A stretch of 64,000 bases of DNA from an uncultured Bacteroides sp. (GTDB lineage Bacteria; Bacteroidota; Bacteroidia; Bacteroidales; GCA-2748055). Positions 5,388-61,092 of this stretch are shown piece after piece; positions within the stretch are counted from its first letter, which is position 1; each line of letters starts with the position of its first letter. The translations under genes and the position numbers were made by a program. The stretch covers positions 2,224 through 66,223 of the forward strand of contig CAZRPW010000009.1 in NCBI GenBank assembly GCA_964601975.1, given 5' to 3'. The notes beneath the pieces were generated by a model, which did no database searches, was not told where the DNA came from, and saw only the letters and a list, made by a program, of their open reading frames with translations.

Positions 5388-5401
5388 CTCTCTCTTTTTA
5401 C

Positions 5402-5473
5402 TTTACAGACTTTACAGACTTTACAGACTTTACAGACTTTACGGACTTTACAGACTTTACAGACTTTACAGAC
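5402..5473 (-). repeat. Tandem repeat, 9 bp x 8 (coding-strand unit AGTCTGTAA; one unit has A->G)
   Basis: The + strand reads tttacagac eight times (fifth unit tttacggac). The first coding-strand unit supplies the last two murD codons plus the TAA stop. The array ends 14 nt before the ftsW GTG start. Confidence 0.95.
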
Positions 5474-6812: not shown

Positions 6813-6832
6813 AGGTTATTTGGTGGTTTGGT

Positions 6833-8083: not shown

Positions 8084-8089
8084 TCCTTC

Positions 8090-11652: not shown

Positions 11653-11653
11653 A

Positions 11654-12034
11654 TTACTCCTCTGTATTAATCAGTTTCTTAGGTGGTTCCAGATTCTCTT
11701 CAAGCCCCAATTCATACCTGTTCACCAACCTTACAACTTCGCTTTGCCGGCTAATCCTTACCAGGTCAGATGATATCGTAATGGACTGGGACCTCAGTTC
11801 TTTCACATCCCCCTGCAAACGATTTAGCCTGATTACCGTTTTCTCGGCATGGTTCCTGTTGGCAATGGAGAGAAAAGCAAGCATTACCAGCAGGAATATG
11901 AAACGGGATTGCTTAGCCACCGCTTTCCGCGTCAGCACGTTCCCATCCAGCAGGTCACGCAGGGAAAAGGACTTCCCGCCCTCTTCCAGGGAGGTGTCAA
12001 ATTCAACGTTCTTATGCTTATGCTCCTTTGTCAT
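11654..12034 (-). CDS. FtsL-like small bitopic cell-division protein
   Basis: 126 aa with one TM helix (FIFLLVMLAFLSIA) followed by a coiled-coil-like region. It sits between rsmH and ftsI, with a 17-nt overlap with rsmH. Confidence 0.55.
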   Translation of the reverse strand: MTKEHKHKNVEFDTSLEEGGKSFSLRDLLDGNVLTRKAVAKQSRFIFLLVMLAFLSIANRNHAEKTVIRLNRLQGDVKELRSQSITISSDLVRISRQSEVVRLVNRYELGLEENLEPPKKLINTEE

Positions 12035-12935: not shown

Positions 12936-13402
12936 TATGTATCCGGTTCGTCAAAAGTTCCTCCTAAAATTTTCTCAGCCATAGCCGCAAAGTCCTCATC
13001 GACACCACTAACACCATCATACTTCTCCGACGCCCAGATCTCAATCTTTCCCGATTGTCCGGCCATCACCACTTCAGCATCTATCTCAGCATACTCCTGC
13101 AATCTTTTAGGAATCAGCATCCGGTTATTGGCATCAAGGGAGACCTCTGCTGTACCAGAGAAAAACATCCTCAGAAATCGTGCATGCTCCTTGTTGTAAG
13201 GATTGGTACGCGCCCGGATGATCTTATTCTGGCGCTCCCACTCCTCCATGGGGTACATGATCAGACATGGCTCAAATACATCCCGCTTCAGAACAAAACC
13301 ATCCTGAAGAGCCTCCCTGATCTGCTTCTTAAAAGCAGCAGGAAAGGAAAGCCTTCCTTTCGGGTCAAGTCTGACTGTATAATCTCCAATGAAAGTTGTC
13401 AT
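12935..13402 (-). CDS. mraZ: Transcriptional regulator MraZ
   Basis: 155 aa with two SpoVT/AbrB-like halves, each with a DxxxR motif (LDPKGRLSFP, LDANNRMLIP). It is the first gene of the cluster. Confidence 0.95.
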   Translation of the reverse strand: MTTFIGDYTVRLDPKGRLSFPAAFKKQIREALQDGFVLKRDVFEPCLIMYPMEEWERQNKIIRARTNPYNKEHARFLRMFFSGTAEVSLDANNRMLIPKRLQEYAEIDAEVVMAGQSGKIEIWASEKYDGVSGVDEDFAAMAEKILGGTFDEPDT

Positions 13403-24094: not shown

Positions 24095-25672
24095 CTAGTG
24101 CTTTAGTTCAAAGATCGGGATACTATTTAATGGAACTGCCAGTTCGAGTTTCTTAGGGCCTTTAATCCTTCGCCCGTTCCGATCTTTCCAAACCCCTTCC
24201 GGGATCACCACCGTACGTGTTCCCTCACCTGGCGCCAGCATGGGCGCCACCAGAATATGATCGCCCAGCATGAATTGGTCATCTATGGCCTGGTATCCCT
24301 GGTGGGGAAATACATATTCCAAGGAACGCACAATGGGTTCACCTGAACCTGCCGATTCCTCTGCCAGATCCAGGATCAGGTCTGTATATTCCGCTCGTAT
24401 ATCAACCGCTCGTTGTACGGCCATGAAGTGCGCCGGATCGAGAATTCTCCAGGGTGCCACGGAAAACTGCATCATAGGCATCAGGGCATGGGTCTGTGCC
24501 GAACGCACAATCAGGTCCTGGTCCATCTCTGCTCCCGGAAGAAAAGAGACAAAATCTCCTCCCCCTACCATATCCGGACAGGTGAAGTTATAACCAACCA
24601 TTCCCTGTAAAAGAATGTCGGGGATCAAGGTTTGGACATCTTCCCAGGTATGGAGCTTATCCCTTAACCTGTTCACGAGGGGCTGACCTGCCATTTTCCA
24701 CATGGCCCTGTATTCATTCAGGGGATAATCCAGTCCAATGTGTGCATATAATTCACAAAGATCATTGGGCCCCATATTGCCATAAGAAACCAGGCCCTGG
24801 TATGCTCCCAGGTCACCGGCATCAAATTTAAAACCATCTACGCCATACTTGTTTTGCAAAGCATCCAGCTGTTCCTTAAACCAAAGGGCTGTTTCAGGAT
24901 TAGAAAGGTCAAGCGATCCACTGGCTCCGTTCCACCACCTGACGATCGCGCTTAATCCTGTGCTATCTTGGAGTAACAGTGCCTTACTATCCAAAAACCG
25001 GTATACATCACAATCCGGACTCACAAATGGGACCACCCACAGCATGACTTTAAAACCCATTTGATGCAATGAATCCATCATCTCCGCCGGATCGGGAAAG
25101 CGTCCCGGGTGAAAATCCCATTTCCCATAATCTTCCTGCCAGTTATCGTCGATCATCAGGACACCCGGAGCAAAGCCATTTTTCAGGATATCGTTGGCAT
25201 ACTTCAAAATATCCTGCTGATTCTGGTCGTACTGCAATTCAATCCACGTGTTGTACTGGGGTGCTGAGAATAATAATATATCCGGAAGGATACCTGCAGG
25301 TGGGAAATAGGTCTTGCTTGCATATAGAAAGGCCTCTTTCAGGGTAGATCCGGATTCATGGTAGATCAGCCCGGCAGCTCCAGCCTGGACAAGCAGGGTA
25401 TCATCCTTCACCTCAACCGTAAATGGCTCCTCAGACCAGATCGTCTGCCCAAGGTTTGAAATAAGCAGAGGCTGGATCTGGTTACCATAATTTCCATTGA
25501 AGTCTGCGGAATAACCTTCTTCCAGCGGCATAAATTCTCCATGACTTACGACCCCGCACCACCAGGCTGTTTCATTCATTTTGATTTTAATATTTGCAGG
25601 ATCAATCTTTTGTCCAAAGCCTGTCACGGGCAGTAGGAAAACGATTAAAACGATACTCCAGAACTTGGTCAT
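24095..25672 (-). CDS. Glycoside hydrolase family 31 (secreted)
   Basis: 525 aa with a signal peptide. It has the GH31 nucleophile-region pattern GVDGFKFDAGD (compare YicI-type ..DCFKTDFGE) and WQEDYGKWDFHPGRFPDP. Confidence 0.75.
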   Translation of the reverse strand: MTKFWSIVLIVFLLPVTGFGQKIDPANIKIKMNETAWWCGVVSHGEFMPLEEGYSADFNGNYGNQIQPLLISNLGQTIWSEEPFTVEVKDDTLLVQAGAAGLIYHESGSTLKEAFLYASKTYFPPAGILPDILLFSAPQYNTWIELQYDQNQQDILKYANDILKNGFAPGVLMIDDNWQEDYGKWDFHPGRFPDPAEMMDSLHQMGFKVMLWVVPFVSPDCDVYRFLDSKALLLQDSTGLSAIVRWWNGASGSLDLSNPETALWFKEQLDALQNKYGVDGFKFDAGDLGAYQGLVSYGNMGPNDLCELYAHIGLDYPLNEYRAMWKMAGQPLVNRLRDKLHTWEDVQTLIPDILLQGMVGYNFTCPDMVGGGDFVSFLPGAEMDQDLIVRSAQTHALMPMMQFSVAPWRILDPAHFMAVQRAVDIRAEYTDLILDLAEESAGSGEPIVRSLEYVFPHQGYQAIDDQFMLGDHILVAPMLAPGEGTRTVVIPEGVWKDRNGRRIKGPKKLELAVPLNSIPIFELKH

Positions 25673-30132: not shown

Positions 30133-30158
30133 AAAAAAAAGCTGAATTTTGTAAGCTT
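30133..30158 (-). terminator. Weak hairpin plus U8 directly after the PHP gene
   Basis: The minus strand reads gAAGCTtacaaaattcAGCTTtttttttc: a 5-bp stem, a 10-nt loop and a T8 run, starting 7 nt after the stop at 30165. Confidence 0.3.
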
Positions 30159-30164
30159 CAAAAA

Positions 30165-31232
30165 CTATTTGCTCACAAAAACAGGAGAGGAAATCGCTTC
30201 ATTTCCATCCTGCTGTGTAATCTTAGTATAAAAGTAATCACCGGGTGAAACATCGAAAGTCTCCTGTATGTTTACTTCGGTTTTAATAATCTGCCACTCC
30301 TTAAGTAGTGATCCGTTTTTATACACCTGCACCTGGGTGAAAATCTCCAGCTCCCGGTCTTTCGCAGTAACCTGGAATTCATAAGTTCCGCTTTCGATTG
30401 TGGATCCCATTTCATTTCCACCCACCTTAAAGGATAGGGCAAGGCTAAGATCCAGGGTTGAATAAAATCGCCTGGCTTTCAGCGACTCGTAAAGCGCGCT
30501 TCGGGTCAGGGTATCTGCAAGAATGGCTAATCTTCTCTGGGTATAATTACCATGGTCACCCCGGTGATTATCCTCCGAGCCTGCAGCTCCCACCTTCCAT
30601 CCTCTTAAATTAGCTTCGTCGTAGTATGACATATTTCCATCATCCGGGAAATAACCGTCGTTATAATAATACCGGCTAAAGTCATTTCGGCCATTCCACA
30701 GTTCAATTCCGACAAAATTATCAGAAGGTTCATCCATAAAATGATTAAACTCAGTACCTAAAACATCCTCCCTGCCGGGGTGATTAAAAAATGCCACACA
30801 ATCATGATCTCTCACCCAATTTAAAAATCCCGTAAACGTATCCTCAGGCACCTTCTGGCAGGTAGTATAGTCTTCACTGTTAATAACGGCAACATGCTGG
30901 TACTCGTGTGACCACTCAAATCCGCGAAATGCTGTAAACACGCCATCTTCATTAAACTTATCAGCCATTTTTCCCGTCTCTTCCCACTCCAGGGAATCGA
31001 TCAGGAAGGCATGATCGGCTAATCCGAAAAAATCCATACCCCCAAACCTGGAGGCATAATAGTATGCTTCCCTGGGGGTTCCCATACCATCAGAAACACT
31101 GGAATGGTTGTGTAAGGTCCCAAAATATACATTGAATCCACCTATTGAATTTGCCTGTGAAAAACCTTCGCTTAAACCCAGGGAAAAAACGATTATAATG
31201 ATTGCTATATTTCTATACTTCATTCCATTCAT
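30165..31232 (-). CDS. Secreted PHP-domain (CehA/McbA-like) metallo-phosphoesterase with a C-terminal beta-sandwich
   Basis: 355 aa with a signal peptide. It has PHP histidine clusters GTLHNHSSVSDG, GLADHAF and FFNHPGRE. Confidence 0.6.
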   Translation of the reverse strand: MNGMKYRNIAIIIIVFSLGLSEGFSQANSIGGFNVYFGTLHNHSSVSDGMGTPREAYYYASRFGGMDFFGLADHAFLIDSLEWEETGKMADKFNEDGVFTAFRGFEWSHEYQHVAVINSEDYTTCQKVPEDTFTGFLNWVRDHDCVAFFNHPGREDVLGTEFNHFMDEPSDNFVGIELWNGRNDFSRYYYNDGYFPDDGNMSYYDEANLRGWKVGAAGSEDNHRGDHGNYTQRRLAILADTLTRSALYESLKARRFYSTLDLSLALSFKVGGNEMGSTIESGTYEFQVTAKDRELEIFTQVQVYKNGSLLKEWQIIKTEVNIQETFDVSPGDYFYTKITQQDGNEAISSPVFVSK

Positions 31233-31234
31233 TA

Positions 31235-31723
31235 TTAATTATTAATACGAAAAAAACGATCCAAGCCGATTCTGTGTCCGCTTGGGAAAAAGAATAAAAT
31301 CAGGAGGGTAAATAACTCAATCAGGTTCTTATTTACAATCAGGTAAGAGCCTTCTGCCATGCCGGAAATATCCAAGCCGATTAGTGGAGGATTGCATAAA
31401 TAATACATGGACAATAGTGCCATGCCTCCCAGACAGGCCCAGCGACTCAAAAGGCCCAGAATAAGGCTTAATCCAATAAGAACCAGTCCCCATTGATTGC
31501 TAAAATTTATGACTTCCAATACCCCGGAATTTGAAGCCATTGCCTTAAATAAGTTTGCAAAAGGCCCCTGTGCTGCATTAAGGAAAGAGGCTGCCGACCA
31601 ATTTGGGTTGATCACTTTTACCCATCCTTCATACAGGAAATGCCATCCAATTAAGACCCTGACTATGACCAATGCAGCTACCTGCCAGTTGGAATAATTT
31701 AACTCACTTCTATGCTTTTTCAT
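31235..31723 (-). CDS. DoxX-family integral membrane protein
   Basis: 162 aa with four hydrophobic helices. VIVRVLIGWHFLYEGWVKV is typical of DoxX. It lies 2 nt from the PHP start. Confidence 0.6.
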   Translation of the reverse strand: MKKHRSELNYSNWQVAALVIVRVLIGWHFLYEGWVKVINPNWSAASFLNAAQGPFANLFKAMASNSGVLEVINFSNQWGLVLIGLSLILGLLSRWACLGGMALLSMYYLCNPPLIGLDISGMAEGSYLIVNKNLIELFTLLILFFFPSGHRIGLDRFFRINN

Positions 31724-31745
31724 TTCAATCCTGATTATTTAGCGA

Positions 31746-33314
31746 CTATCCAATTACTGCTTTCTCCTTTACAGGATCCCATCTGACCATCTTTTGGTGA
31801 TCATAAGCCAGATTTGCCAGGTTGAAGGTAACGGCCTCTTCAAAACCCTCATCAACTCCACAACTTGGTACCCCATGACCACGGATGGCATCAACCCATT
31901 CCTTCAAATGAAGCAAGGTTGCATTAAACAATTTGCCATCCACAGAGGTTGGCCCATAACCCCCTTTCATATAAGCCTTTGAAGTGGCAGATGATATGGC
32001 ATCAATATTATCATCGGGAGCGTAGTAATAGTAGGGATCAGAGGGATGAACGTTTATGTCCTTGTATCGCTCCGAATTGTTGTCCTTATACATCAGGATG
32101 GCCCTGTCAACATCAACGGTCCCGGCAGAGCCCAGTATCCGGGAGGGCCTGTAGGCGTCATTTCTCAGATTTCCATCGTAGGTCAAAGTCAGTCCCCGTT
32201 CAGGATAATTAAAAACAGCATTGAATATATCGGGCATATCCCCGTGGTGTTTATAATAATATTGCCCTCCCAGGGCAACCACTGTTTCCGGAATGCCCAG
32301 ATTTAATACCTGGTTCATGCAATCATATTGATGAGACAGGTCATTCCCGGTTAAACTCGTCCCATAATCGCTGTAGCGCTGCCAGCTAAAGAATCTCTTC
32401 AGATCGAATTTTTGCCAGGGTGCATCCCCAAGGAATTCTTCCCAATTAATATTATCCCTGTTACCCAGTTTGTGGTCAAAGGCATCATCCCTGATCCAGG
32501 CTCCAAAGTCAGTATTCCGGTTCGTATAGACCTGAACCATACTAACATCTCCGAAAACACCTTTATTGTATAACTCATTTGCAATTTTAAAACTCGTCTG
32601 CTGACGATTCTCATGCCCCAGCTGAAAAACAACCCCGGTAGCTTTTATGACATCTCTCAGCATGACTGCTTCCTCGATGCTATGGGTCATGGGCTTCTCA
32701 AGATATACATGTATGCCTGCTTTAGCTGCCGCAATAGCGATCTGCGCATGGGTATGATCGGCCGTTGCAATAATAATGGCATCAATCTCATTGCTGGCAA
32801 TCATCTCTCTGTAACTGGAATATACTTTTGCCTGTTTCCTTTTCCCGGTACCCGGATGAATATCATTTGCAGAAATTTCAAGGCCGCGTTGTGTATGAAC
32901 TTCAAAAGTATCGCAAACGGCAGTAAACTCAAGGTTAAAATCTTCCTGGTCTAAAAAGGCTTCCAATCGCTCGTCTGGTTTCCCGTTTACAGTACTTTCC
33001 TTAACAAAATCAGGGTGAACATAACCTAGACGTCGTAATAATTGCTCTCCACGCCAACCGTTTCCAACTAAACCAAACCTTATACGATTGCCGCTGTTCC
33101 CGGTTGGAGGGTTCAACTTCTTATCCAGGGTTTCAATTCGATTAATTTTCAACCTTTCCCTGAAATCCCCCCCTGCCCTTGCTGTCCCTGCAGCCATATG
33201 TGCTTTTATGGCATATCCAAAGTAGCCAAGAACGGGTATGGTTGCCAATGCCTTAATGGTATCCCGACGGGATATTTTATACTTTTTTTTCTGGTCCATA
33301 TACTCGGTTTTCAA
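31746..33314 (-). CDS. Tat-exported Gfo/Idh/MocA-family NAD(P)-dependent oxidoreductase
   Basis: 522 aa with a twin-arginine leader (KISRRDTIKALATIPVLG), a Rossmann motif (RFGLVGNGWRG) and the family EKP motif (HVYLEKPMTH). Confidence 0.85.
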   Translation of the reverse strand: MKTEYMDQKKKYKISRRDTIKALATIPVLGYFGYAIKAHMAAGTARAGGDFRERLKINRIETLDKKLNPPTGNSGNRIRFGLVGNGWRGEQLLRRLGYVHPDFVKESTVNGKPDERLEAFLDQEDFNLEFTAVCDTFEVHTQRGLEISANDIHPGTGKRKQAKVYSSYREMIASNEIDAIIIATADHTHAQIAIAAAKAGIHVYLEKPMTHSIEEAVMLRDVIKATGVVFQLGHENRQQTSFKIANELYNKGVFGDVSMVQVYTNRNTDFGAWIRDDAFDHKLGNRDNINWEEFLGDAPWQKFDLKRFFSWQRYSDYGTSLTGNDLSHQYDCMNQVLNLGIPETVVALGGQYYYKHHGDMPDIFNAVFNYPERGLTLTYDGNLRNDAYRPSRILGSAGTVDVDRAILMYKDNNSERYKDINVHPSDPYYYYAPDDNIDAISSATSKAYMKGGYGPTSVDGKLFNATLLHLKEWVDAIRGHGVPSCGVDEGFEEAVTFNLANLAYDHQKMVRWDPVKEKAVIG

Positions 33315-34255
33315 CTTCTTAATATTGAATTCTTAAAATATTGAAGGTCCCGGTTCAATAGTTTATAAATCTTCTCCGGAGCCATTGTGGGACTTAGCTT
33401 GCCCAGCTCGGCTCCGCCAAGGTCGTATTCATAATGAAGGGTGATGGGGACTGAAGAAATGATTGAATCGATTTCATCCATATACTTCTCAAAATTCACC
33501 ATCCCTTCTCCCAGGGGAACCCATTTTGTCCTCCACCTTTTCTCTCCATTTTCCCAGACAAAATCTTTAATAGCCAGGCTGTTTATCCACGGGAATATTA
33601 ATTCTAAAACAAGTTCCCAGGAAAATCCGCCTTCGGCTGTGGCATGTGCAATATCATACTGCACCCCGATATACTCCGGTTCAAAATCCTTTAATACATA
33701 ATGCAGATCCCAAACAGCTCCTCCCATCATTCCCCATGGACCGGAGTGGTTCTGGTAGCCCCCCCGGATATTATATTTTCTATTGAGCTTCTCAAGTTTT
33801 TCAAGTTTCCGCCTATGGATGTCCAGATTCTCAAATAGACTTATCTTGTGGTCGTAGCTATAAACCCCCATCCTGTAATAGGGTATCCCTGCATCGGCTG
33901 CCGATCCAAGCACTTGTTCGGTAAGAGGATCAACTGCATCATTAATACTGGTAGCGATCATGGGGACCTTAATGCCTGATTTCCCAAGGGCTTTAACTGC
34001 TTTTGGCAAATCCTTTTTTACATTTTCAGGAAGTACGTGCCCCTTGGGCCGTACCGTTAAATCTACACCATCGAAACCCAGATCGGCGACCACTTCACCC
34101 AATTCCCGGTAAGCTAAAAACTGCAGACACTTGGAGAAAACACACAGTGGATATGGGCTGATCTTTAAGGGAGGCATAGCCATGCCGGGAGCCAGGCTAA
34201 TTCCAGCTGCGGAAGCTGTACCAAGCTTTATAAACTTCCTCCTGTCTAGTTTCAT
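33311..34255 (-). CDS. Tat-exported xylose-isomerase-like TIM-barrel protein (sugar phosphate isomerase/epimerase family)
   Basis: 314 aa with a twin-arginine leader (MKLDRRKFIKLGTASAAGISLA). It overlaps both neighbours by 4 nt. Confidence 0.75.
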   Translation of the reverse strand: MKLDRRKFIKLGTASAAGISLAPGMAMPPLKISPYPLCVFSKCLQFLAYRELGEVVADLGFDGVDLTVRPKGHVLPENVKKDLPKAVKALGKSGIKVPMIATSINDAVDPLTEQVLGSAADAGIPYYRMGVYSYDHKISLFENLDIHRRKLEKLEKLNRKYNIRGGYQNHSGPWGMMGGAVWDLHYVLKDFEPEYIGVQYDIAHATAEGGFSWELVLELIFPWINSLAIKDFVWENGEKRWRTKWVPLGEGMVNFEKYMDEIDSIISSVPITLHYEYDLGGAELGKLSPTMAPEKIYKLLNRDLQYFKNSILRS

Positions 34256-35475
34256 GGCCCGACGAATTTCTTGAAATACTCATCAAAAACCGGGCATAGC
34301 TGTCCTCCGAGATCCAGCCAATCGGATGAAAGCGGCATTTTTTCAAGGCTCTTTATCCAATGGGCATTAAGCTCGTAAACCAGCGCATTGATACCGTACC
34401 TCAACATCAGGCCCTCCTCGAAGGATTCGCTCCCAAAATAGGAGGTTCGCTCACCAAACCAGGTTTTTTCCCGCAACAGGGCTTCCAGCAATTCCATGTT
34501 TTTCACATAGCTTTCATTTTGTTTCCCTGCAGAAGCAAAAAATAAGGCCCCGTTGGAGTCGTTATGAAAATCAATCGCCAGTCCGGGTTTATTCCCCCGT
34601 GCAATCATTCCTTCCAGCCAACTTTCCATGGCTGCATTTTCGGGAGACAGAACCGGATCGGCAGGTGCAAGCAGCTTCCGGTTTAAATCCATGCCATTCA
34701 TGTTAAACCTTGAAACACCATTTGCCACACCATCCATATTTGCCATGGGCAATATATAAACAGCGTAGTTGCTCAGGTAGTCTTTTCCCCGGCCCGACTC
34801 ATCCAGGAGGGTGCGTATGATTCCTTCTACAACCCAGTTACCGCCAGCTTCCCAGGGATGAACCCTTGCTCGGATAAACAAGTTGTTTGGAGCATGATCA
34901 TCTCCAATTTGAATGATTTGAAGCGTTCTTCCCTCTACCGTTTTACCGATTGGGGTAATCTTTGCTCTTTTTTCTTCCTGAAGGCTTTCAATTAAATGCT
35001 GAAGGTTGCTCAAGCGATATGGTTCCACCCGTGCAATGTATAAGGAATCCGAGTCCATGTGAATCTTCACCTTCATCCTTTCTCCTTCAAGCCATTCGAC
35101 AGGAACATGGCTCCAGTCAAGGTCATCGGGAGAAGTAATACAATCCATGATCCATGTTCTGAAGGGCATGGTCTTCCCATTGTATACCTCACTAAAATTG
35201 TGAAAAATCAGGGTGATATCTGATCCGGCTTCAGCCTCCAGTAAAAAATGCCAGTGATCGTATGCCCTGTTCAGAGACACCCGCTCATAATCATAAGCCA
35301 GGTAAATATGTACGCTGCCATCCTCTGCAATGTCCCAGTTCAGATGGGAACCATTTTCAATTTTGTTATTGATGTAGGTCACAGGACTTTTATCTCCCCC
35401 GGAGGAGGCCTTCACTGAAATCCCAAATGTTAATGGCACCAGGAATAGCAAGCTTAAAAAGAAGTTTTTTAGCAT
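34252..35475 (-). CDS. Secreted M14 zinc carboxypeptidase, cytosolic-carboxypeptidase (M14D)-like layout
   Basis: 407 aa with a signal peptide and a ~170-aa N-terminal beta-rich domain. This is followed by ARVHPWEAGGNWVVEG (HxxE zinc site), YILPMANMDGV and GMDLNRK. Confidence 0.7.
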   Translation of the reverse strand: MLKNFFLSLLFLVPLTFGISVKASSGGDKSPVTYINNKIENGSHLNWDIAEDGSVHIYLAYDYERVSLNRAYDHWHFLLEAEAGSDITLIFHNFSEVYNGKTMPFRTWIMDCITSPDDLDWSHVPVEWLEGERMKVKIHMDSDSLYIARVEPYRLSNLQHLIESLQEEKRAKITPIGKTVEGRTLQIIQIGDDHAPNNLFIRARVHPWEAGGNWVVEGIIRTLLDESGRGKDYLSNYAVYILPMANMDGVANGVSRFNMNGMDLNRKLLAPADPVLSPENAAMESWLEGMIARGNKPGLAIDFHNDSNGALFFASAGKQNESYVKNMELLEALLREKTWFGERTSYFGSESFEEGLMLRYGINALVYELNAHWIKSLEKMPLSSDWLDLGGQLCPVFDEYFKKFVGP

Positions 35476-36510
35476 CTACGAATCTCTTAATCTATTTTGC
35501 ATTTCTGTAGCACTTTTGATGTGCTCTTCATGAGTAAGCAGATCGAACTCCTTGATGAGATCTGCTACTTTAACATCCGGGGAAAGGCTTTCAATGATGG
35601 ACCATTCTTCCTCATCAAAACTTGTGATTTTTACCTTCCGTCCATATTTCGCAGAGATTTCTTTAAAACGTTGGTAATAAGGCCATGAATGCAAAAATAC
35701 TTTCTCCAGATTTAATGGAGCGATTACCCAGTTCCTTTGCCATCTTCCGGTCTTTCCGATCTCTGTTCCCGAGATATCGCATATTTTTGCTGTGCCGGCC
35801 AGGGTGCTTGAGACCACATTAAACTTGTTTTGCCAGGCCAAGGTATTTACAGCAACTCCACCGGGGTAAGCAGAGCAGAAAAATACTATCTCAGCGCCTT
35901 TTTCTCTCAACTTTTTCCACCCGTCGTCCCATTCCAAATCGAAACATATCTGCACCCCTATTGTCCCAAAGTCCGTTTTAAAAACAGGCGGATCCAGGGG
36001 TCCCGGAGATACACCCTTCCCCATTTCGCCCTCGGTACAGTGTATTTTTCTATATTCGCCAAGTACTTTCCCTTCCCTGTCAATTACACGGGCGGCGTTA
36101 TAGTACTTTCCCTTTTCATGGGTATAAAGTGGACAAATAATATAGCAGCCATATTTTTTTGCAAAAGCTGCAAACCTGGAGGTAATTTCCCCGTCAGGAC
36201 CTTCGGCAACATCCTGAATTGATATTTTTTCAGAAATGTGGAAGAAGGGGAAAATTTCGGGCAGACAAATGACGTCAGGTTTAAAATTAACAATCCCCTC
36301 CATCTCCTCCAGAACCTGATCGACCATTTCCGCATAATTGGCCGCCTCAAACCTTTCCAATGAGAAACTGGCAATCCACACTTCTCCTGGTAATTTGTCA
36401 ATTTTTCCCTCCTCAATAAGGTCTTTTGAATGAGCCAGTGAAGAGGAAGTTAATGTCAGCCCTGAACCTAAACCAAGCGCTGAATTCCTTATAAATTTGC
36501 GTCGTTCCAT
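35476..36510 (-). CDS. Tat-exported carbon-nitrogen hydrolase (nitrilase-superfamily amidase)
   Basis: 344 aa with a twin-arginine leader (MERRKFIRNSALGLGSG). It has E-K-C triad contexts VICLPEIF, YRKIHC and GVQICFDLEW. Its stop abuts the M14 start. Confidence 0.8.
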   Translation of the reverse strand: MERRKFIRNSALGLGSGLTLTSSSLAHSKDLIEEGKIDKLPGEVWIASFSLERFEAANYAEMVDQVLEEMEGIVNFKPDVICLPEIFPFFHISEKISIQDVAEGPDGEITSRFAAFAKKYGCYIICPLYTHEKGKYYNAARVIDREGKVLGEYRKIHCTEGEMGKGVSPGPLDPPVFKTDFGTIGVQICFDLEWDDGWKKLREKGAEIVFFCSAYPGGVAVNTLAWQNKFNVVSSTLAGTAKICDISGTEIGKTGRWQRNWVIAPLNLEKVFLHSWPYYQRFKEISAKYGRKVKITSFDEEEWSIIESLSPDVKVADLIKEFDLLTHEEHIKSATEMQNRLRDS

Positions 36511-36567: not shown

Positions 36568-36622
36568 CAAAAAATAAAGTTTCCCGATTGAATACACCAT
36601 TACAAATATCCAACCGGGAAAC
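36568..36622 (-). terminator. Strong, strand-specific intrinsic terminator after the T9SS repeat protein
   Basis: The minus-strand RNA forms GUUUCCCGGUUGGAUA, a 12-nt loop, then UAUUCAAUCGGGAAAC. That is 16 contiguous pairs including 2 G.U, followed by UUUAUUUUUUGG. The two wobble pairs become C.A mismatches on the + strand. Confidence 0.7.
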
Positions 36623-36634
36623 CTTAGCAATCTA

Positions 36635-38128
36635 CTATTTAACTACTACTTTGTGTGTTTCGGATTTCTCACCGCTAATTACATTAATAAGATACATTCC
36701 TTTAGTCAGGCTTGACAGATCAACCTCCACTTTCGAGCTGTTGATGCTATGCTTACCTCCTACTAACATCCCACTGATACTGTAGATGTTGTAGCTGGAA
36801 ATATCTGAAGAGGAATTCTCAATATAAAGTCTTCCTTCTGCCGGGTTTGGATATACAACCATTTGAAGATCGTAAGATTGAAGGTCTTTAACTCCGGTAG
36901 TACCACCGCCGGTAAACCAAACATGGAAAACCGGACCTTCTTCATCCATATCAAAGGAATAGGCATTCCTGTTTGCATCCTCATTAACCAAGCCTGTCAA
37001 TACAAACATCATATTGTTACCGGCTTCCCATCCGTCATTGGCAATAATTTCAGTAACGATTGCACTTAAATCAGGGGTCTGCTGTGCCTCAAGAACATCA
37101 AATTCTGCAAGCCATGGTGCAGGAGCCCAGTCAACCGTTGCTGTTGTACTGGCTTTTCCGGAAACACCAAAACTGATTGCCTTGATGGAATCCACCTGGG
37201 CTGAATCAACACCATAAATTTGGAGATCGATAGCAGCGTCTGAATCAGTTTTAGCAACAAACTGGATATATGCCTTACTGATGGTTGCACCGGCTGGAAT
37301 CTGTACATCACGGAATAAGGTTCCAATGTATTGTGGGACGTCATCCCAGTATAATTCCAGGTCAGAGCTACCTCTCGATACATCTCCTACTTCTATCTCC
37401 CAATCAGGGACTGCGAGTGAGGCTTCTTCAGCATCATCATTTCCATCGACAATCGGTATTGCCAGGTGATCGGGTTCTGCTACAGCCTCGGTATACCAAA
37501 CATGGAAAACCGGACCTTCTTCATCCATATCAAAGGAATAGGCATTCCTGTTTGCATCCTCATTAACCAAGCCTGTCAATACAAACATCATATTGTTACC
37601 GGCTTCCCATCCGTCATTGGCAATAATTTCAGTAACGATTGCACTTAAATCAGGGGTCTGCTGTGCCTCAAGAACATCAAATTCTGCCAGCCATGGTGCC
37701 GGAGCCCAGTCAACCATTGCTGTTGTTCTGGCTTTTCCGGAAACACCAAAGCTAATTGCCTTGATGGAATCCACCTGGGCTGAATCAACACCATAAATTT
37801 GAAGATCGATAGCGGCGTCTGAATCAGTTTTAGCAACAAACTGGATGTATGCAGAATCAATGGTTGCGCCTGCGGGTATCTGAACACCACGGAAGAGCGT
37901 CCCAATGAATTGTGGAACGTCATCCCAGTATAATTCCAGGTCAGAGCTACCTCTCGATACATCTCCTACTTCTATCTCCCAATCAGGGACTGCGAGTGAG
38001 GCTTCTTCAGCATCATCATTGCCATCGACAATCGGAATTGCCAGGTGTGTCTGCTGTGCTGAAATCCCCATGAACATGAAGAAAGCGACACAAAGCATTA
38101 CCATTCTAAAGTAAAATTTTGTTCTCAT
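36635..38128 (-). CDS. T9SS-secreted protein made of two ~193-aa copies of an uncharacterised module
   Basis: I set the start at MRTKFYFRMVMLCVAFFMFMGISAQQ (38128), which gives a signal peptide. The track start at 38179 is unlikely. Two modules run HLAIPIVDGNDDAEEASLAVPDWEIEVGDVSRGSSDLELYWDD...PVFHVW. The C-terminal VVYPNPAEGRLYIEN...GMYLINVISGEKSETHKVVVK is a T9SS CTD. Confidence 0.8.
   Translation of the reverse strand: MRTKFYFRMVMLCVAFFMFMGISAQQTHLAIPIVDGNDDAEEASLAVPDWEIEVGDVSRGSSDLELYWDDVPQFIGTLFRGVQIPAGATIDSAYIQFVAKTDSDAAIDLQIYGVDSAQVDSIKAISFGVSGKARTTAMVDWAPAPWLAEFDVLEAQQTPDLSAIVTEIIANDGWEAGNNMMFVLTGLVNEDANRNAYSFDMDEEGPVFHVWYTEAVAEPDHLAIPIVDGNDDAEEASLAVPDWEIEVGDVSRGSSDLELYWDDVPQYIGTLFRDVQIPAGATISKAYIQFVAKTDSDAAIDLQIYGVDSAQVDSIKAISFGVSGKASTTATVDWAPAPWLAEFDVLEAQQTPDLSAIVTEIIANDGWEAGNNMMFVLTGLVNEDANRNAYSFDMDEEGPVFHVWFTGGGTTGVKDLQSYDLQMVVYPNPAEGRLYIENSSSDISSYNIYSISGMLVGGKHSINSSKVEVDLSSLTKGMYLINVISGEKSETHKVVVK
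36890..38047 (-). repeat. In-frame tandem duplication, period 579 bp (2 copies)
   Basis: Antisense track ORFs recur at an offset of 579 bp with identical peptides (36863..37069 vs 37466..37648; 37014..37217 vs 37593..37796). Long stretches are therefore nucleotide-identical. Confidence 0.9.
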
Positions 38129-38206
38129 AATTGAAATTTTTAGATTATTACTGTAAATAATAGTGAAAATTGATATCAAAAATATTTAGGACTATGATTA
38201 TAATTT

Positions 38207-47916: not shown

Positions 47917-49512
47917 TTAATAACCCGGGTTCTGAGGCTTCAGATTCGGGCTCTTATCAATTTCAGTTTGTGGAATGGGCCACAGGTAGTTTTTGGTTTT
48001 ATCAAAACTGTCCCATGTTTCAAAACCATCGGACCCAAATACCTGGTCTCCCATATCTCTTCTTACAATATCATGCCATCTCTTATACTCGAAAGCCAGT
48101 TCAAGCCTTCTTTCCTCAAGTACAAGTGTTCTGAATTCATCCTTGCTGATTCCCGAAGCAACATCGGCAGGAGAAGCACTGGGTCCGTATGAACCGTATC
48201 CGCCTCCGTCCCAGTTGATGACACCTCCTGAACGGGCGCGTTCACGTAGCTGGTTTACATAGCCTGCAGCTTCGGTGGTAAGGCCAATCTCATTCCCTGC
48301 TTCTGCAGCAATTAATAATACCTCCCCGTACCTGTAAACTATGTAATTCAGATCTGATCTCCATCCGGCAGTTGCACTCTTTATTTCACCGCAAAAACGG
48401 TTGTGTTTTGCAGCATGAGGCCTTGGAATATCAGGAAATTCAGTATAAGGGCTTACAACATCCTGGTTGGAAAGGAGAATGGAATCTGTAAAGCTTACCT
48501 TTTTCCTGTAATCATTATCGTCCCAATCTTCATAAACTTTCAGGCTCGGAACAAGCATGCTCCACCCCCTGTAATATCGTTCGGCTCCCTCAATTGCCTC
48601 ATATGCCCCCAGCTCATGACCATTTTCCTGGGTAAAACTATTTGTCGGATTGTCTCCTCTCATGTTACCCATGAAATCCACAGCAAAAATATATTCCTTG
48701 GAATTATCCTGGGTCTCAGCCCTGAACAGATCCTGGAAATCAGTTTCCAGAGCATAATTCAGCGTTGCAGCATTGTCAATCACCCATTTGGCCTGATCGT
48801 AGGACTCCTGCCAGTTCCCCAGCGTAAGGTGTACGGACGCAAGAACAGTGGCAGCAGAACCTTTAGAAGGCCTTGTGCGTCTGTCTGATTCGGGGTGTTG
48901 CATAGGCAGATACTCCAGCGCAAATTCCAGATCACTAATAATTCCTTCATATATAATATCGACGGAGGACTTCTCCACTTTACTTACGTCGAAATTCAGA
49001 TCCGTCAGGTAAGGAAGTTCTCCAAAGCCACGTACCAGGTCGTAATAAACCAAAGCCCTTACAAACCTGGCCTCTGCTTCCAGCGCATCTTTTGTACTTT
49101 GTGATTCATCGATCTGACTTACACCAAATATGGCTGTATTTGCAATACTGACGACTCCATAAGCACATTCCCAAAATTGCAAAGTGTAAGTATTAACGGG
49201 ATCAACCGTAAACCGGTTGTAATCGGCATAGCCTGATGCAAAATCGAGACCGACGTCCATCATATCACTGCCCAGGCAGAGTGCCCCGACATACCTGGAT
49301 CCATAATAATTTGTGGAAGCCATAGAGCCATAGCAACCATTAATGGCTGACAGAACTTCTGCAGCGGAGGCAAAGTACCCTTCCGGGGCAAGCAATCCTA
49401 CAGGGTCTTCGTCCAGGTCGACACAACTACTGGAGAAAACCAAAACAATGCTTATAATATATAGTTTAAATATCCTTTTCATGACGTTTCCTTTAAATAA
49501 GTTAGTCTTCAT
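47917..49512 (-). CDS. susD: SusD/RagB-family glycan-binding lipoprotein
   Basis: 531 aa with a lipoprotein signal (LVFSSSC). It lies immediately downstream of the SusC-like gene. An alternative start at 49482 (MKRIFKLY...) is equally plausible. Confidence 0.85.
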   Translation of the reverse strand: MKTNLFKGNVMKRIFKLYIISIVLVFSSSCVDLDEDPVGLLAPEGYFASAAEVLSAINGCYGSMASTNYYGSRYVGALCLGSDMMDVGLDFASGYADYNRFTVDPVNTYTLQFWECAYGVVSIANTAIFGVSQIDESQSTKDALEAEARFVRALVYYDLVRGFGELPYLTDLNFDVSKVEKSSVDIIYEGIISDLEFALEYLPMQHPESDRRTRPSKGSAATVLASVHLTLGNWQESYDQAKWVIDNAATLNYALETDFQDLFRAETQDNSKEYIFAVDFMGNMRGDNPTNSFTQENGHELGAYEAIEGAERYYRGWSMLVPSLKVYEDWDDNDYRKKVSFTDSILLSNQDVVSPYTEFPDIPRPHAAKHNRFCGEIKSATAGWRSDLNYIVYRYGEVLLIAAEAGNEIGLTTEAAGYVNQLRERARSGGVINWDGGGYGSYGPSASPADVASGISKDEFRTLVLEERRLELAFEYKRWHDIVRRDMGDQVFGSDGFETWDSFDKTKNYLWPIPQTEIDKSPNLKPQNPGY

Positions 49513-52500
49513 TAAAATCCAACATTTACACCTACGGTAATCGACTTAACACTCGGATAACCCGCATAATCCAGGCCCAGGCTGGTGCTGTTACTTCCAT
49601 AGGAAATCTCAGGATCAACTCCCTTGTATTTTGTAAGTGTTAGGATGTTCTGTGCACTTACATAGATTCTCGCTGAACGGATTTTTGTTTTGCTTAGAAG
49701 GCTTTCACTAAAATTATATCCCAGGGAGACATTCTTTAAACGAATGTAACTCCCATCTTCGACCCACCTGTCGGAAAAAACCGCGGAATTACTAACGTTC
49801 GCCATTGGAATATCCGTATCAGTATTTGTCGGGGTCCAACGATCCAGGGCCTCTAATGTGGCATTGTTCCGACCATTCAGGGTTCCCAGTTCCATCCTGG
49901 TATAGTTGATCATATCACCACCCTGGGAGCCCTGGATAATCAGGTTCAGATCAAAACCGCCATAGGTGAAGCTATTATTCCAGCTCCAGATAAAATCAGG
50001 ATGGGGATTACCCACAATTACCCGGTCGTTATCATCCAGTATACCATCAGGAGTCACATCCTTAAATTTCTCACCCCCTACACCATCGGCATTTACCAAT
50101 TGATCTTCACCTTCCTGCAATACACCCTCATATACATATCCGTAGAAAACACCCACAGACTCTCCTTCTCTCAATACCTGGGTATACTGACTCCCTGCCC
50201 CTTCAATGGGTGCAGTGCCATAATAAATATCATTAAACTCATTATCATTCTCTACCAGGGTAAGGATCTTATTCCTGTTAAATGAGATATTGGCATTGGT
50301 ATTCCATTTCAACTTACCTGTGAGGACTTTCGCATTAAGCGCAAATTCAACCCCACTGTTCTGTACCTGTCCAATATTCTGCAACTGGTAGCTAAAACCG
50401 CTAAACCGGGCAACCGGTACACTGAATAGGAGGTCCGAAGTAATCATATTGTAGTAATCTGCAGTCATCCCGATCCTGTTTTCCAGAAGTCCGATATCCA
50501 AACCGATATCCGTCTGCGCTGTTGATTCCCATGTGAGATTCGGATTGGATGTGGATCCGGGTTTAATCGCAGAAACGATCGTTCCCCTGTCGGTTGTAAA
50601 CACATCGGTTAATGTTGCAAGTGACTGGTAAGGACTAATGGCCTGGTTACCGGTAATACCATAACTCACCCTTAATTTTAACTGGCTGATATCGTCCACA
50701 TTTGACATAAACCCTTCCTTTTTTATATTCCAGGCCAGGGCCCCTGATGGAAAGAATGCCCATTTATTGTTTGCGGCAAACCTCGATGAACCATCATATC
50801 GTGCATTAAAAGTGAAGAGGTACTTGCTATTAAAACCATAATTCAGTCGTCCGTAATAGGATGCCAATTTAGATTTTGTGAGGTAAGAATCATATACGGG
50901 TATTCCGGTTGCTGAACCCAAATTCCAGTATAAAAAGGCATCCGTTGGAAAACCACTGGCATATTCATTTCCCATTCCTTCCGAATTAAAAGCCTGGTAT
51001 GAATATCCTGCCATTACATTCACATCATGCACACCATTAAAAACAGTTGCGTAAGTAAAATAATTCTCACTTGCAAGATTCGTAGACAGGTCATAGGAAA
51101 GATTTGCTTCCCCATCCACCGAAGATCCACGTTCAGTCTTACTGGTTATATATCGTCCATCTCGCCCACTTTCTGTGCTAAGACCCAGCGTTGTTTTAAA
51201 TTTCAAGCCTTTCAACAGGTCAAGCTCCGTAAAAAAATTACCCTGCTTCAAATCAGTGATCTCCTGTATAATATACTCAGTAGCTGCAGCATATGGGTTG
51301 TCGGAAGGGATTCCCCTGTCTGTCAAAGTCAAATTTCCATCCTCATCATAGATCCCCACAGTTGGACTGAATTTGTAAGCCATGTCAGGTACACTCGGGG
51401 CATAATAACCTCCGGTCTGTGATCTCACACCATTCCGATCTACACTCCGTGCATGGATATTGGCTCCTACGCTGACCCAATCCAATACCTGGGCTTTAAT
51501 GTTACTTGTAAATGAATATCTCTGGTAATCTGAGCTAAGCACAATCCCCTGCTGATCATAGTAGGTTCCTGATAAATAATAAGTGATTTCATCTGTCCCC
51601 CCGGAAACAGACATTTGATAATTTTGAAGCAGTCCGTTCCGGTAGATAACATCCTGCCAGTTAGTTCCCTCACCATAACTGGAGGGTTCATTATAAAAAC
51701 CCGGGTCAATTTCATTTATAAGTGTGGCATAATCAGTTGCATTAAGCACCTCCAGGCGGTTAATTTCCCGCTGGAAAGAAGTGGATGCACTGAAATCAAT
51801 TTTAAAAACCCCGCTTTTCCCGCTTTTTGTCGTAACCAGCACAACACCGTTGGCTCCCCGGGAACCGTAGATGGCAGTTGAAGAAGCATCTTTCAAAACC
51901 TCCATAGAGGCGATATCCTCAGGCGGTGGCATTTCCGCACCGGGAAATCCATCCACAACAATCAGGGGATCACTGCTTGCATTTATGGAAGTGTTACCCC
52001 TGATACTAATACTGTAACCCGAGCCCGGCTCACCATTTGTGGATTGAACCTGCACACCCGCAGCCATCCCTTGCAAGGCCTGAATTGCATCAGCAGCGGG
52101 ATAAGCAGTTAAATCATCAGCAGTGACAGAAGCTACTGAACCGGTAATGTCGCTCTTCTTCACGGTACCATATCCAACCACCACCAATTCTTCAAGGAGT
52201 TCTGTACTTTCCTTCAGGCTTACATTTATTTCGGATCTTCCTGAAACAGGAACTTCTATGCTTGTAAAACCGATGTAGGAAAATAAAAGGACCGAATTCG
52301 CATCCGGAACTTCAATGGAATAGCTACCATCTATTCCACTAATAGTGCCTATCGCCGTACCTTTAACCAGGATATTAACACCCGGAAGGGTTTCTCCCGT
52401 GCTGGCTGATGTTAAAATTCCCCTAATCTCAAGATTTTGAAATTCCGTACTGGGTGTAATTACAATGACTTTATCTACTACCTTATAAGAAACCCCGGCA

Positions 52501-52817
52501 TCTTTAAATGCACTTTTCAGAACATCTTCGATGGAACTGTTCTTAGCTTCAACGCTAATTACCTTGTCAACATCTATCTGATCGTCTTTATAAAAGAAAT
52601 TGAACTCACTCTGTTTCTCTATTTCATTAAACAGCTCTTTTATAGTTGCATCCTTCAGAGATACATCTAAACGTGCCTGTTGAGAATACCCACTTGCTGT
52701 AACGCTCAGGACACTTACCAGTAATAAGAATGTTGAAAGTTTCATTACCATCAGGATTTTCAGCGCATTCTTGTTTTTAGTAAAAAACCGAATGCCCGGT
52801 TCATCAATATTTTTCAT
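49512..52817 (-). CDS. susC: SusC-like TonB-dependent transducer (STN signalling domain, carboxypeptidase-regulatory-like domain, plug and barrel)
   Basis: 1101 aa. It has an STN region (LDVSLKDATIKELFNEIEKQSEFNFFY...VIVITP), a CarboxypepD_reg-like IRGILTSASTGETLPGVNILVKGT and a plug (VVVGYGTVKKSDITGSV). It ends in a terminal Phe. Confidence 0.9.
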   Translation of the reverse strand: MKNIDEPGIRFFTKNKNALKILMVMKLSTFLLLVSVLSVTASGYSQQARLDVSLKDATIKELFNEIEKQSEFNFFYKDDQIDVDKVISVEAKNSSIEDVLKSAFKDAGVSYKVVDKVIVITPSTEFQNLEIRGILTSASTGETLPGVNILVKGTAIGTISGIDGSYSIEVPDANSVLLFSYIGFTSIEVPVSGRSEINVSLKESTELLEELVVVGYGTVKKSDITGSVASVTADDLTAYPAADAIQALQGMAAGVQVQSTNGEPGSGYSISIRGNTSINASSDPLIVVDGFPGAEMPPPEDIASMEVLKDASSTAIYGSRGANGVVLVTTKSGKSGVFKIDFSASTSFQREINRLEVLNATDYATLINEIDPGFYNEPSSYGEGTNWQDVIYRNGLLQNYQMSVSGGTDEITYYLSGTYYDQQGIVLSSDYQRYSFTSNIKAQVLDWVSVGANIHARSVDRNGVRSQTGGYYAPSVPDMAYKFSPTVGIYDEDGNLTLTDRGIPSDNPYAAATEYIIQEITDLKQGNFFTELDLLKGLKFKTTLGLSTESGRDGRYITSKTERGSSVDGEANLSYDLSTNLASENYFTYATVFNGVHDVNVMAGYSYQAFNSEGMGNEYASGFPTDAFLYWNLGSATGIPVYDSYLTKSKLASYYGRLNYGFNSKYLFTFNARYDGSSRFAANNKWAFFPSGALAWNIKKEGFMSNVDDISQLKLRVSYGITGNQAISPYQSLATLTDVFTTDRGTIVSAIKPGSTSNPNLTWESTAQTDIGLDIGLLENRIGMTADYYNMITSDLLFSVPVARFSGFSYQLQNIGQVQNSGVEFALNAKVLTGKLKWNTNANISFNRNKILTLVENDNEFNDIYYGTAPIEGAGSQYTQVLREGESVGVFYGYVYEGVLQEGEDQLVNADGVGGEKFKDVTPDGILDDNDRVIVGNPHPDFIWSWNNSFTYGGFDLNLIIQGSQGGDMINYTRMELGTLNGRNNATLEALDRWTPTNTDTDIPMANVSNSAVFSDRWVEDGSYIRLKNVSLGYNFSESLLSKTKIRSARIYVSAQNILTLTKYKGVDPEISYGSNSTSLGLDYAGYPSVKSITVGVNVGF

Positions 52818-61085: not shown

Positions 61086-61092
61086 AATTCTT

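Follow-up and report, generated by a model that had tools for sequence, protein, structure and literature searches.

Oxidative, non-Koshland cleavage of glycosides has been described only recently, and its closest described representatives, BT2156-2159 of B. thetaiotaomicron and AL1-4 of Alistipes, form a 3-keto-glycoside oxidation-elimination-hydration pathway (Liou 2020; Liu 2021, PMC8121099; bioRxiv 10.1101/2024.03.25.586180). In this pathway, a Gfo/Idh/MocA oxidoreductase (Gfo) carrying a twin-arginine translocation (Tat) leader oxidises C3 via tightly bound NAD, a TIM-barrel 'sugar phosphate isomerase' (TIM) serves as 3-keto-beta-glucoside 1,2-lyase, and a DUF1080 protein serves as alpha-lyase/hydratase (Nasseri et al., 10.1101/2024.03.25.586180). 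Re-oxidation of the bound NAD was left open by the authors, who noted that specialised proteins might be involved in vivo (Nasseri et al., 10.1101/2024.03.25.586180). Here we analysed a block of six genes in a 64,000-nt stretch of DNA (hereafter the window; contig CAZRPW010000009.1 of assembly GCA_964601975.1, positions 2,224 to 66,223) from an uncultured Bacteroides sp., in which a Tat-leader Gfo and a xylose-isomerase-like TIM barrel are encoded together with a CN hydrolase, an M14 peptidase, a DoxX-family protein and a PHP-like hydrolase. A first-pass annotation of the window had read the block as a discrete operon inside a glycan locus, matching no characterised pathway. The observation was confirmed and the interpretation held in part: rather than a discrete novel pathway, the block is a conserved composite, made up of three accessory units of a polysaccharide utilization locus (PUL). 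The pairing of a Tat-leader Gfo with a xylose-isomerase-like TIM is the architecture of the 3-keto-glycoside pathway, so the claim that nothing characterised matches had to be given up in that respect and stands in so far as the match is one of kind only.

Results

Conservation and dispersal of the six-gene block

The listing of open reading frames (ORFs) and direct reading of the sequence confirmed six co-directional minus-strand ORFs at 36510-30165, three of them with Tat-type leaders and two with general secretory (Sec) leaders:

36510-35476, minus strand: CN hydrolase, Tat leader, 344 aa
35475-34252, minus strand: M14 metallocarboxypeptidase, Sec leader, 407 aa
34255-33311, minus strand: xylose-isomerase-like TIM barrel, Tat leader, 314 aa
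33314-31746, minus strand: Gfo/Idh/MocA oxidoreductase, ORF of 522 aa, the gene being likely 33299-31746
31723-31235, minus strand: DoxX-family integral membrane protein, 162 aa
31232-30165, minus strand: PHP-like CehA/McbA metallohydrolase, Sec leader, 355 aa

Judged from sequence, all six products look periplasm-facing, and the six genes probably form one transcription unit.

A genome scan with the CN hydrolase returned 80 loci (47-78% identity) from Bacteroidota, Planctomycetota, Acidobacteriota, Gemmatimonadota, Sumerlaeota and other phyla, against which all proteins of the PUL were run by tblastn. The order CN hydrolase-M14-TIM-Gfo-DoxX-PHP was kept in four of these loci (L007, L009, L010 and L016). 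Maribellus luteus (L008) has the same order, except that two extra genes, for a FAD oxidoreductase and an Amidohydro_2 protein, lie after the CN hydrolase gene and that its Gfo is divergent, and L006 has the order without M14. Synteny of the six families in other genomes, on which the first-pass annotation had staked its reading, was therefore found in the four loci and in L008. The gene order recurs in Marinilabiliales, in Maribellus, Draconibacterium and metagenome-assembled genomes; with such recurrence, the block cannot be put down to chance.

Outside this group the parts were distributed differently. In Maribacter the order is beta-helix, CN hydrolase, Amidohydro_2, M14, TIM, DUF4832, DUF4832, GH27 (GH, glycoside hydrolase family), Gfo and DoxX. 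Only the CN hydrolase and M14 were detected of the six in Arenibacter, amid beta-helix, GH27 and DUF4832 genes, and in Saprospiraceae only the CN hydrolase-M14 pair is left, with a 4-nt overlap, followed by a glucuronoyl esterase gene of the CE15 type (CE, carbohydrate esterase family). The CN hydrolase occurs alone in about 60 Planctomycetota and other loci, where its neighbours vary and are mostly carbohydrate-related; a beta-helix (Pel9A-like) gene lies directly upstream of it in 8 loci. TIM (54%), Gfo (68%) and DoxX (50%) were found in a different PUL (L086), after SusC/SusD and before a CE4-GH3 gene, while among the other TIM homologues one adjoins a Gfo without DoxX and a third stands alone. 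CN hydrolase-M14, TIM-Gfo-DoxX and the CN hydrolase alone each occur independently, and the TIM-Gfo-DoxX cassette appears to move between different PULs of environmental Bacteroidota.

The spacing of the genes follows the same division. Across the orthologous loci no gap between TIM and Gfo or between Gfo and DoxX exceeds 23 nt, and the other junctions reach 52-192 nt and more; tight spacing, on which translational coupling had been proposed for the whole block, is thus conserved only for TIM-Gfo-DoxX. Nor is the block the discrete operon within a glycan locus that it was taken for, since in Maribacter DUF4832 and GH27 genes lie scattered among its members and the parts are distributed differently elsewhere.

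The Maribacter polysiphoniae version (L001/L002, 1868-8160) also encodes a GSDH-cytochrome c fusion (a periplasmic sugar dehydrogenase of the pyrroloquinoline quinone type), GH109, a PF12831 FAD oxidoreductase and an M28/M20 peptidase. With these extra genes, the periplasmic redox and peptidase repertoire of this locus type is larger than that seen in the window.

DoxX and its association with a Gfo subfamily

The DoxX-family protein matched PF07681 marginally (24.9 bits against a cut-off of 23.6), and four hydrophobic segments are visible in the alignment of its homologues. A metagenome scan with the DoxX alignment returned 80 loci, whose neighbouring genes were checked for the Gfo family. 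A Gfo gene is the immediate same-strand neighbour of DoxX in 46 of these, and in 21 of the 29 loci with at least 1.7 kb visible on both sides. Of the 46 Gfo genes, 26 are upstream of DoxX and 20 downstream, and the spacing ranges from -37 to 148 nt. Other recurrent DoxX neighbours are genes for DUF1080 3-keto-disaccharide hydrolases, xylose-isomerase-like TIM barrels, ApbE and NusG_II proteins. Gfo-DoxX is a general pair; in this metagenomic set, TIM was found ahead of it in only 3 of 32 loci, and of 60 visible loci only 1 has PHP after DoxX.

The Gfo proteins found beside DoxX share a distinctive N-terminus. An RR pair is present in all 34 full-length Gfo proteins of the DoxX-neighbour cluster, and the extended motif RRD[FIL][LI]KGLA[TA]xP[VF][LF]G in 31 of these and in 5/5 of the genome set, as against none of nine Gfo proteins without a DoxX neighbour. 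Basic residues come after the motif, with no sign of a conserved AxA cleavage site. A hydrophobic leader this conserved among proteins with identities down to 23-27% would be unusual for a cleaved signal peptide. DoxX adjacency, together with an N-terminal motif absent from other Gfo proteins, suggests that Gfo and DoxX form a membrane-bound unit. What appears to be new here is DoxX as the partner of a Gfo subfamily with its own conserved Tat-type N-terminal motif; a literature search found nothing linking DoxX to Gfo, DUF1080, 3-keto sugars or the 3-keto-glycoside pathway.

A bolder proposal, which we consider possible though doubtful, is that DoxX is the missing membrane partner of a distinct NAD-bound periplasmic Gfo subfamily, that RRDxLKGLATxPVxGxF is an uncleaved Tat signal-anchor docking to DoxX, and that the pair is a glycoside:quinone oxidoreductase that re-oxidises the cofactor and so couples oxidative glycan cleavage to the respiratory chain.

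Two further observations concern DoxX homologues in other loci. ApbE flavin-transferase and NusG_II-domain genes stand next to some of them (for example L128, 5917-6927, and L138, 321-1223), a hint that this DoxX subfamily may be linked to flavin-based electron transfer outside the cytoplasm. L006 holds a second, more divergent DoxX copy (6725-7129, 51% identity) beside a beta-helix gene with a type IX secretion system (T9SS) signal, with no adjacent Gfo.

The TIM barrel and the Gfo oxidoreductase

The family assignments of the first-pass annotation hold in Pfam and NCBIfam searches. Its three twin-arginine leaders are borne out by RR pairs conserved in the CN hydrolase, TIM and Gfo homologues, Tat export being read from the motif only, and the catalytic residues that it expected are present.

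TIM matched PF01261 with 66.9 bits. R5, R6 and F8 of its leader are invariant in 16 homologues, as are H170, D201, H204, E208, D231, H274 and E276 of the barrel in the alignment of homologues. Its AlphaFold2 (AF2) model (predicted local distance difference test score, pLDDT, 81) retrieved a broad set of xylose-isomerase-like TIM enzymes in Foldseek, among them AtHYD, a 3-keto-glucal hydratase, and YcjR, which epimerises 3-keto-glucosides. Sequence and model together make TIM a candidate 3-keto-glycoside lyase, hydratase or epimerase.

Gfo matched PF01408 and PF02894, and RR is present in every Gfo orthologue examined. Its best NCBIfam model was the BT_2158 glycoside 3-dehydrogenase (113.5 bits against a cut-off of 750), with inositol and levoglucosan dehydrogenases as further relatives. 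The best PDB matches, 8tdh and 8tdf (E 4e-22), cover residues 161-345 only; from the shared 8TD* deposition series we take these two to be dehydrogenases of the BT3/AL3 type. Gfo is therefore best regarded as a candidate glycoside C3-dehydrogenase.

The CN hydrolase, the M14 peptidase and the PHP-like hydrolase

The CN hydrolase matched PF00795 with 97.1 bits (gathering score 23.2), and its E85/K155/C189 triad and the RR pair of its leader are invariant in 13 homologues (53-75% identity). No NCBIfam equivalog was reached: all nine matches fell far below their cut-offs, the best being TIGR03381 (59.4 bits against 410). Likewise, the best PDB matches (PH0642, beta-ureidopropionase and N-carbamoylputrescine amidase) reached only E ~1e-14. 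With 1379 homologues in the protein collection, the enzyme appears to represent a large, highly conserved periplasmic branch across Bacteroidota, Planctomycetota and other phyla; we found no characterised member of this Tat-leader family.

M14 matched PF00246 (59.5 bits against 21.6). The zinc and catalytic set H206, E209, H304 and E368 is invariant in 8 orthologues, together with R256 and N265-R266, the Asn-Arg pair that in M14 enzymes binds the C-terminal carboxylate of the substrate. PDB matches to 3l2n, 4b6z, 3k2k and 4a37 (E 1e-21 to 1e-17) begin at residues 72-76 and span both domains, and CCP5 was matched with E 7e-7. By sequence, M14 is a bacterial cytosolic-carboxypeptidase-like (M14D-like) enzyme with a predicted N-terminal beta-sandwich domain.

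For the PHP-like hydrolase, the only model passed was NF038032 (CehA/McbA metallohydrolase; 93.3 bits against 80), the match to DUF3604 being faint, so the earlier designation as a phosphoesterase is too narrow. The PHP-type metal set H41, H43, D73, H74, E106, H113, H151, D221 and H223 is invariant. A sequence search of the PDB gave no match. The AF2 model (pLDDT 83.5) has a C-terminal beta-sandwich, and the best Foldseek match was 3e38 (a two-domain PHP-like protein, E 1.9e-9), with 7ug9 also found. Homologues occur in Clostridia, Spirochaetes and cable bacteria, and many carry T9SS tails and are thus secreted. The named CehA/McbA members are carbamate-pesticide hydrolases, and for that reason their function is not transferable to the enzyme described here.

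In one metagenomic orthologue (P0252, 535 aa), DoxX and PHP lie in one read-through protein in which the PHP signal peptide is kept internally. This may be a genuine fusion, or it may stem from assembly or gene calling. With the signal peptide retained internally and a sequencing, assembly or gene-call error possible, we did not count it as evidence of a functional DoxX-PHP link.

A role of the CN hydrolase, M14 and PHP in the processing of muropeptides or teichoic acids was considered and rejected, there being no lysozyme or N-acetylhexosaminidase genes in support.

Junctions, start codons and flanking signals

The coordinates given by the first-pass annotation hold for all ORFs, as do four of its five junctions. 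Read from the sequence, CN hydrolase and M14 abut (35476/35475), M14 and TIM overlap by 4 nt (34252-34255), Gfo and DoxX are separated by 22 nt, and DoxX and PHP by 2 nt. The 4-nt overlap of TIM and Gfo (33311-33314) exists only if Gfo starts at the TTG at 33314. In five of seven Gfo orthologues the start is an ATG some 9 residues ahead of the RR motif, and in the remaining two the longest ORF opens with TTG and has an in-frame Met at the same ATG position. Because of these start positions, the ATG at 33299 is most likely the start here as well, leaving a TIM/Gfo gap of 11 nt, which is tight all the same. On a metagenomic contig of identical sequence, public gene calls place the start of PHP at Met4 (31223), which gives an 11-nt gap after DoxX, and with the start that they assign to the downstream GH31 gene the gap between PHP and the next gene is about 224 nt.

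Two hairpins flank the block:

36568-36626, minus strand: terminator-like hairpin, 21-bp stem and 10-nt loop followed by a U-run
30133-30159, minus strand: weak hairpin (GAAGCU...AGCU) followed by U8, just after the PHP stop

The upstream hairpin, already described as a minus-strand terminator 57 nt before the block, proved real and strong. It lies just 3' of the stop of the gene for a T9SS-tailed repeat protein and 57 nt before the ATG of the CN hydrolase, folds with -27.5 kcal/mol (z = -5.36; 0/200 shuffles fold as well), and has a homologue at the same place, after the same upstream gene, in L006 and L007. The downstream one is as weak as had been noted, with a 6-bp stem within the minimum free energy structure of a region no stabler than its shuffles (z = -0.93); together with its U8 it is a possible end of the transcription unit. 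Terminator-like sites are not in excess within the block (7 found against 7.6 expected from shuffles).

An Rfam scan of the whole window gave no match, and no known riboswitch or leader RNA was found upstream of the block. A sigma-70 promoter scan (19 sites against 14.9 expected) was uninformative, the model not covering Bacteroidota promoters, and no exact TAnnTTTG box was seen by eye in the 124-nt spacer upstream of the block. The G+C content (GC) of the block, 0.43-0.45, is the same as that of its flanks; there is consequently no sign of recent transfer, and we ruled against recent horizontal acquisition of the block.

The enclosing locus and the rest of the window

Pfam matches placed the block in a PUL:

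24095-54898, minus strand: PUL, all genes on this strand
49512-52817, minus strand: SusC with STN domain
47917-49512, minus strand: SusD

Adjacent SusC and SusD genes are accompanied on the same strand by genes for extracytoplasmic function (ECF) sigma factor, FecR, GH27, two GH31 and two DUF4832 proteins. In the direction of transcription, the locus starts with ECF sigma, FecR, SusC (STN), SusD, two beta-helix proteins and a DUF4832/GH42-like protein, continues with a second ECF sigma, GH27, a second FecR, the T9SS-tailed repeat protein and the six genes, and ends with GH31, an NAD-epimerase-like gene, DUF4832 and a GH31 alpha-galactosidase. The last of these (24095-25672) matches the GH31 alpha-galactosidase 8j50 (E 1.7e-174), and GH27 matches the beta-L-arabinopyranosidase 4nx0 (E 4e-77). 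For the glycan targeted by the PUL, GH31 and GH27 point only to alpha-Gal or beta-L-Arap linkages. A PDB search with the beta-helix protein gave nothing useful, and the literature on DUF4832 held only an association with Gram-positive Pel loci, with no function given; a galactosaminogalactan- or Pel-like target glycan was considered via DUF4832 and not adopted.

The T9SS-tailed protein (36635-38179, minus strand) is predicted to be secreted; it is built from a unit of about 190 aa that occurs twice in tandem with hardly any change, and Pfam recognises only its sorting tail. In the window, in L006 and in L007 its gene is the one immediately upstream of the CN hydrolase gene, and the conserved hairpin comes after it. 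GH27 (41038-39599, minus strand) separates the second ECF sigma gene (41693-41043) from its FecR anti-sigma gene (39382-38207). No SusC gene comes after this FecR, an arrangement that is unusual for pairs signalling across the envelope.

Outside the PUL the window holds housekeeping genes, among them the dcw cell-wall and division cluster, an aspartyl-tRNA synthetase gene and others. The dcw cluster is complete (850-13402, minus strand; mraZ, rsmH, a PBP3-type transpeptidase, murE, mraY, murD, ftsW, murG and murC). Between 60001 and 62000 the GC drops to 0.32 from about 0.45 elsewhere, over genes for a GNAT acetyltransferase and a polysaccharide deacetylase/DUF3473 protein (60252-61953), and this stretch may be a recently acquired island.

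Discussion

We consider it the most probable reading, with reasonable rather than high confidence, that three accessory units, each mobile on its own, make up the six-gene block within a conserved PUL of marine Bacteroidota, all of them acting periplasmically on imported oligosaccharides; the substrates and the electron path are in every case inferred. For TIM-Gfo-DoxX, which appears to be a variant of a known system with an unreported partner, we propose that Gfo is exported by Tat with its NAD bound and oxidises a glycoside hydroxyl, most likely at C3, upon which the metal-dependent TIM would carry out the elimination or hydration (or the epimerisation) that the 3-keto group enables, a non-Koshland route as for BT2156-2159/AL1-4. 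DoxX would be the dedicated membrane partner, to which the conserved, apparently uncleaved Gfo N-terminus probably docks, and it may hand reducing equivalents to the quinone pool.

The roles of the CN hydrolase-M14 pair and of the PHP-like hydrolase are read from residues and neighbours only. The CN hydrolase, as a thiol amidase, and M14, as a zinc carboxypeptidase, would remove amide-linked non-sugar groups, namely primary amide or carbamoyl groups as well as amino acids whose carboxylate is free, probably on uronic-acid carboxyls or glycopeptide remnants. The PHP-like CehA/McbA metallohydrolase would remove a further ester-type substituent (phosphoester or carbamate). Removal of amide, amino-acid and phosphate decorations, as the first-pass annotation had proposed, is a reasonable guess.

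Several points weigh against this composite reading. The 80 DoxX loci that yielded 46 adjoining Gfo genes are related sequences and not independent samples. The Gfo score lies far below the cut-off of the BT_2158 model, and for TIM the profile match to the published lyase structure 8tcs is marginal (E 2.7e-3); the PDB profile search and Foldseek confirm the TIM fold and do not separate lyase, hydratase and epimerase. DUF1080 (PF06439) matched no window ORF of at least 150 aa. The neighbours of the CN hydrolase vary in most genomes, which makes its link to glycans circumstantial. To our knowledge, DoxX has no redox cofactor able to take hydride from NADH. In the BT/AL pathway the enzyme is re-oxidised by the 3-keto sugar product, so that no electron acceptor from outside is required, and the published AL/BT enzymes did not accept galactosides (10.1101/2024.03.25.586180), while the window locus carries alpha-galactosidase-type hydrolases.

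In our view it is unlikely that the block encodes a 'finishing line', its six enzymes working in sequence in the periplasm and dedicated to one decorated oligosaccharide, kept together by selection and set apart from the rest of the locus. Such a line would account for the identical order at 63-80% identity in at least five Marinilabiliales loci, the tight packing in the window, the conserved hairpin at the upstream boundary and the single metagenomic DoxX-PHP read-through protein of 535 aa. It would not be expected to be split by three glycoside hydrolase genes, as in Maribacter, to lack M14 (L006) or to take up two genes and a divergent Gfo (L008), nor to loosen to 52-192 nt and more at the junctions outside TIM-Gfo-DoxX. 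The parts also live apart: TIM-Gfo-DoxX in an unrelated PUL, the CN hydrolase on its own in about 60 loci, PHP after DoxX in only 1 of 60 loci and TIM before Gfo-DoxX in only 3 of 32. Another idea is that the CN hydrolase, M14 and PHP are general periplasmic scavengers of nitrogen, peptides or phosphate that merely share an operon with carbohydrate genes, which we regard as the least probable of the alternatives. Identities of 47-60% across Planctomycetota, Acidobacteriota, Gemmatimonadota and Sumerlaeota without a fixed neighbour, a level of conservation that fits a common small-molecule substrate, and the occurrence of PHP homologues in Clostridia, Spirochaetes and cable bacteria would agree with it. 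In Bacteroidota, however, the CN hydrolase repeatedly comes right after a beta-helix gene and inside SusC/SusD loci, its neighbours elsewhere are mostly carbohydrate-active (sulfatases, BD-FAE/GDSL esterases, FG-GAP/ASPIC, DUF1080 and GH109), and in Saprospiraceae the CN hydrolase-M14 pair stands beside a CE15 glucuronoyl esterase. A literature search linking CN hydrolases to PULs found nothing relevant.

The remaining alternative concerns the redox unit, in which Gfo-DoxX and TIM could be a respiratory periplasmic sugar or inositol dehydrogenase system acting on monosaccharides freed by GH27 and GH31, with electrons passing to menaquinone via DoxX and TIM isomerising or epimerising the keto-sugar for uptake. 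The closest solved and curated relatives of Gfo are glycoside 3-dehydrogenases and DUF1080 3-keto-disaccharide hydrolase/lyase genes recur beside DoxX, both of which speak against this alternative; moreover, no path from enzyme-bound NADH to quinone without flavin or haem is known. Set against these are the strong Gfo-DoxX linkage, the membership of DoxX in the family of the quinone-binding subunit DoxD, a name that one JGI record gives to the fused orthologue, and the occasional ApbE and NusG_II neighbours of DoxX. The fold matches of TIM also include sugar 3-epimerases and the 3-keto-glucoside 4-epimerase YcjR, and inositol and levoglucosan dehydrogenases are among the further relatives of Gfo. 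We judge this alternative improbable, to about the same degree as the finishing line.

DoxX and the subfamily-specific Gfo motif offer a concrete candidate for the component that re-oxidises bound NAD in vivo. The occurrence of the CN hydrolase in PULs beside M14 or CE15 points to the removal of amide-linked glycan decorations, which is poorly covered by CAZy-type annotation.

Comparison with known systems

The CN hydrolase shares the CN_hydrolase fold and the Glu-Lys-Cys triad with the amidase and decarbamoylase nitrilases (beta-ureidopropionase, N-carbamoylputrescine amidase, N-carbamoyl-D-amino-acid amidohydrolase and PH0642). It matches them only at E 1e-14 to 1e-9, with at most 59 bits in NCBIfam against cut-offs of 355-500, and differs by its Tat leader and a conserved C-terminal extension of 75 residues; whereas these nitrilases are cytosolic, its predicted leader makes it periplasmic. 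M14 has the same N-terminal beta-sandwich, M14 domain and full zinc and catalytic set as the cytosolic-carboxypeptidase-like entries 3l2n, 4b6z, 3k2k and 4a37, which carry no substrate-specific names in the PDB. Unlike them, it has a Sec leader, which would place it in the periplasm, is encoded in a PUL and is paired with a CN hydrolase. With the CehA/McbA, DUF3604 and BVU_3505 (3e38) proteins, the PHP-like hydrolase has in common the barrel, the C-terminal beta-sandwich and the His/Asp metal ligands.

The DoxX family includes DoxD of the thiosulfate:quinone oxidoreductase DoxDA, M. tuberculosis DoxX and B. subtilis MhqP. As in these systems, a small polytopic PF07681 protein appears here to be paired with an extracytoplasmic redox enzyme; in contrast to DoxDA, the partner is an NAD-dependent Gfo sugar dehydrogenase and not a sulfur enzyme. 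As in BT2156-2159/AL1-4, a Tat-leader Gfo adjoins a metal-dependent xylose-isomerase-like TIM, both predicted to face the periplasm. The two enzymes are distant from their BT/AL counterparts in sequence (113 against 750 bits for Gfo; 8tcs marginal for TIM), and there is no second, cytoplasmic Gfo gene in the window. The cassette sits in a SusC/SusD locus with alpha-galactosidase-type hydrolases, and it adds DoxX and the conserved Gfo N-terminal motif, neither of which has been described for BT/AL.

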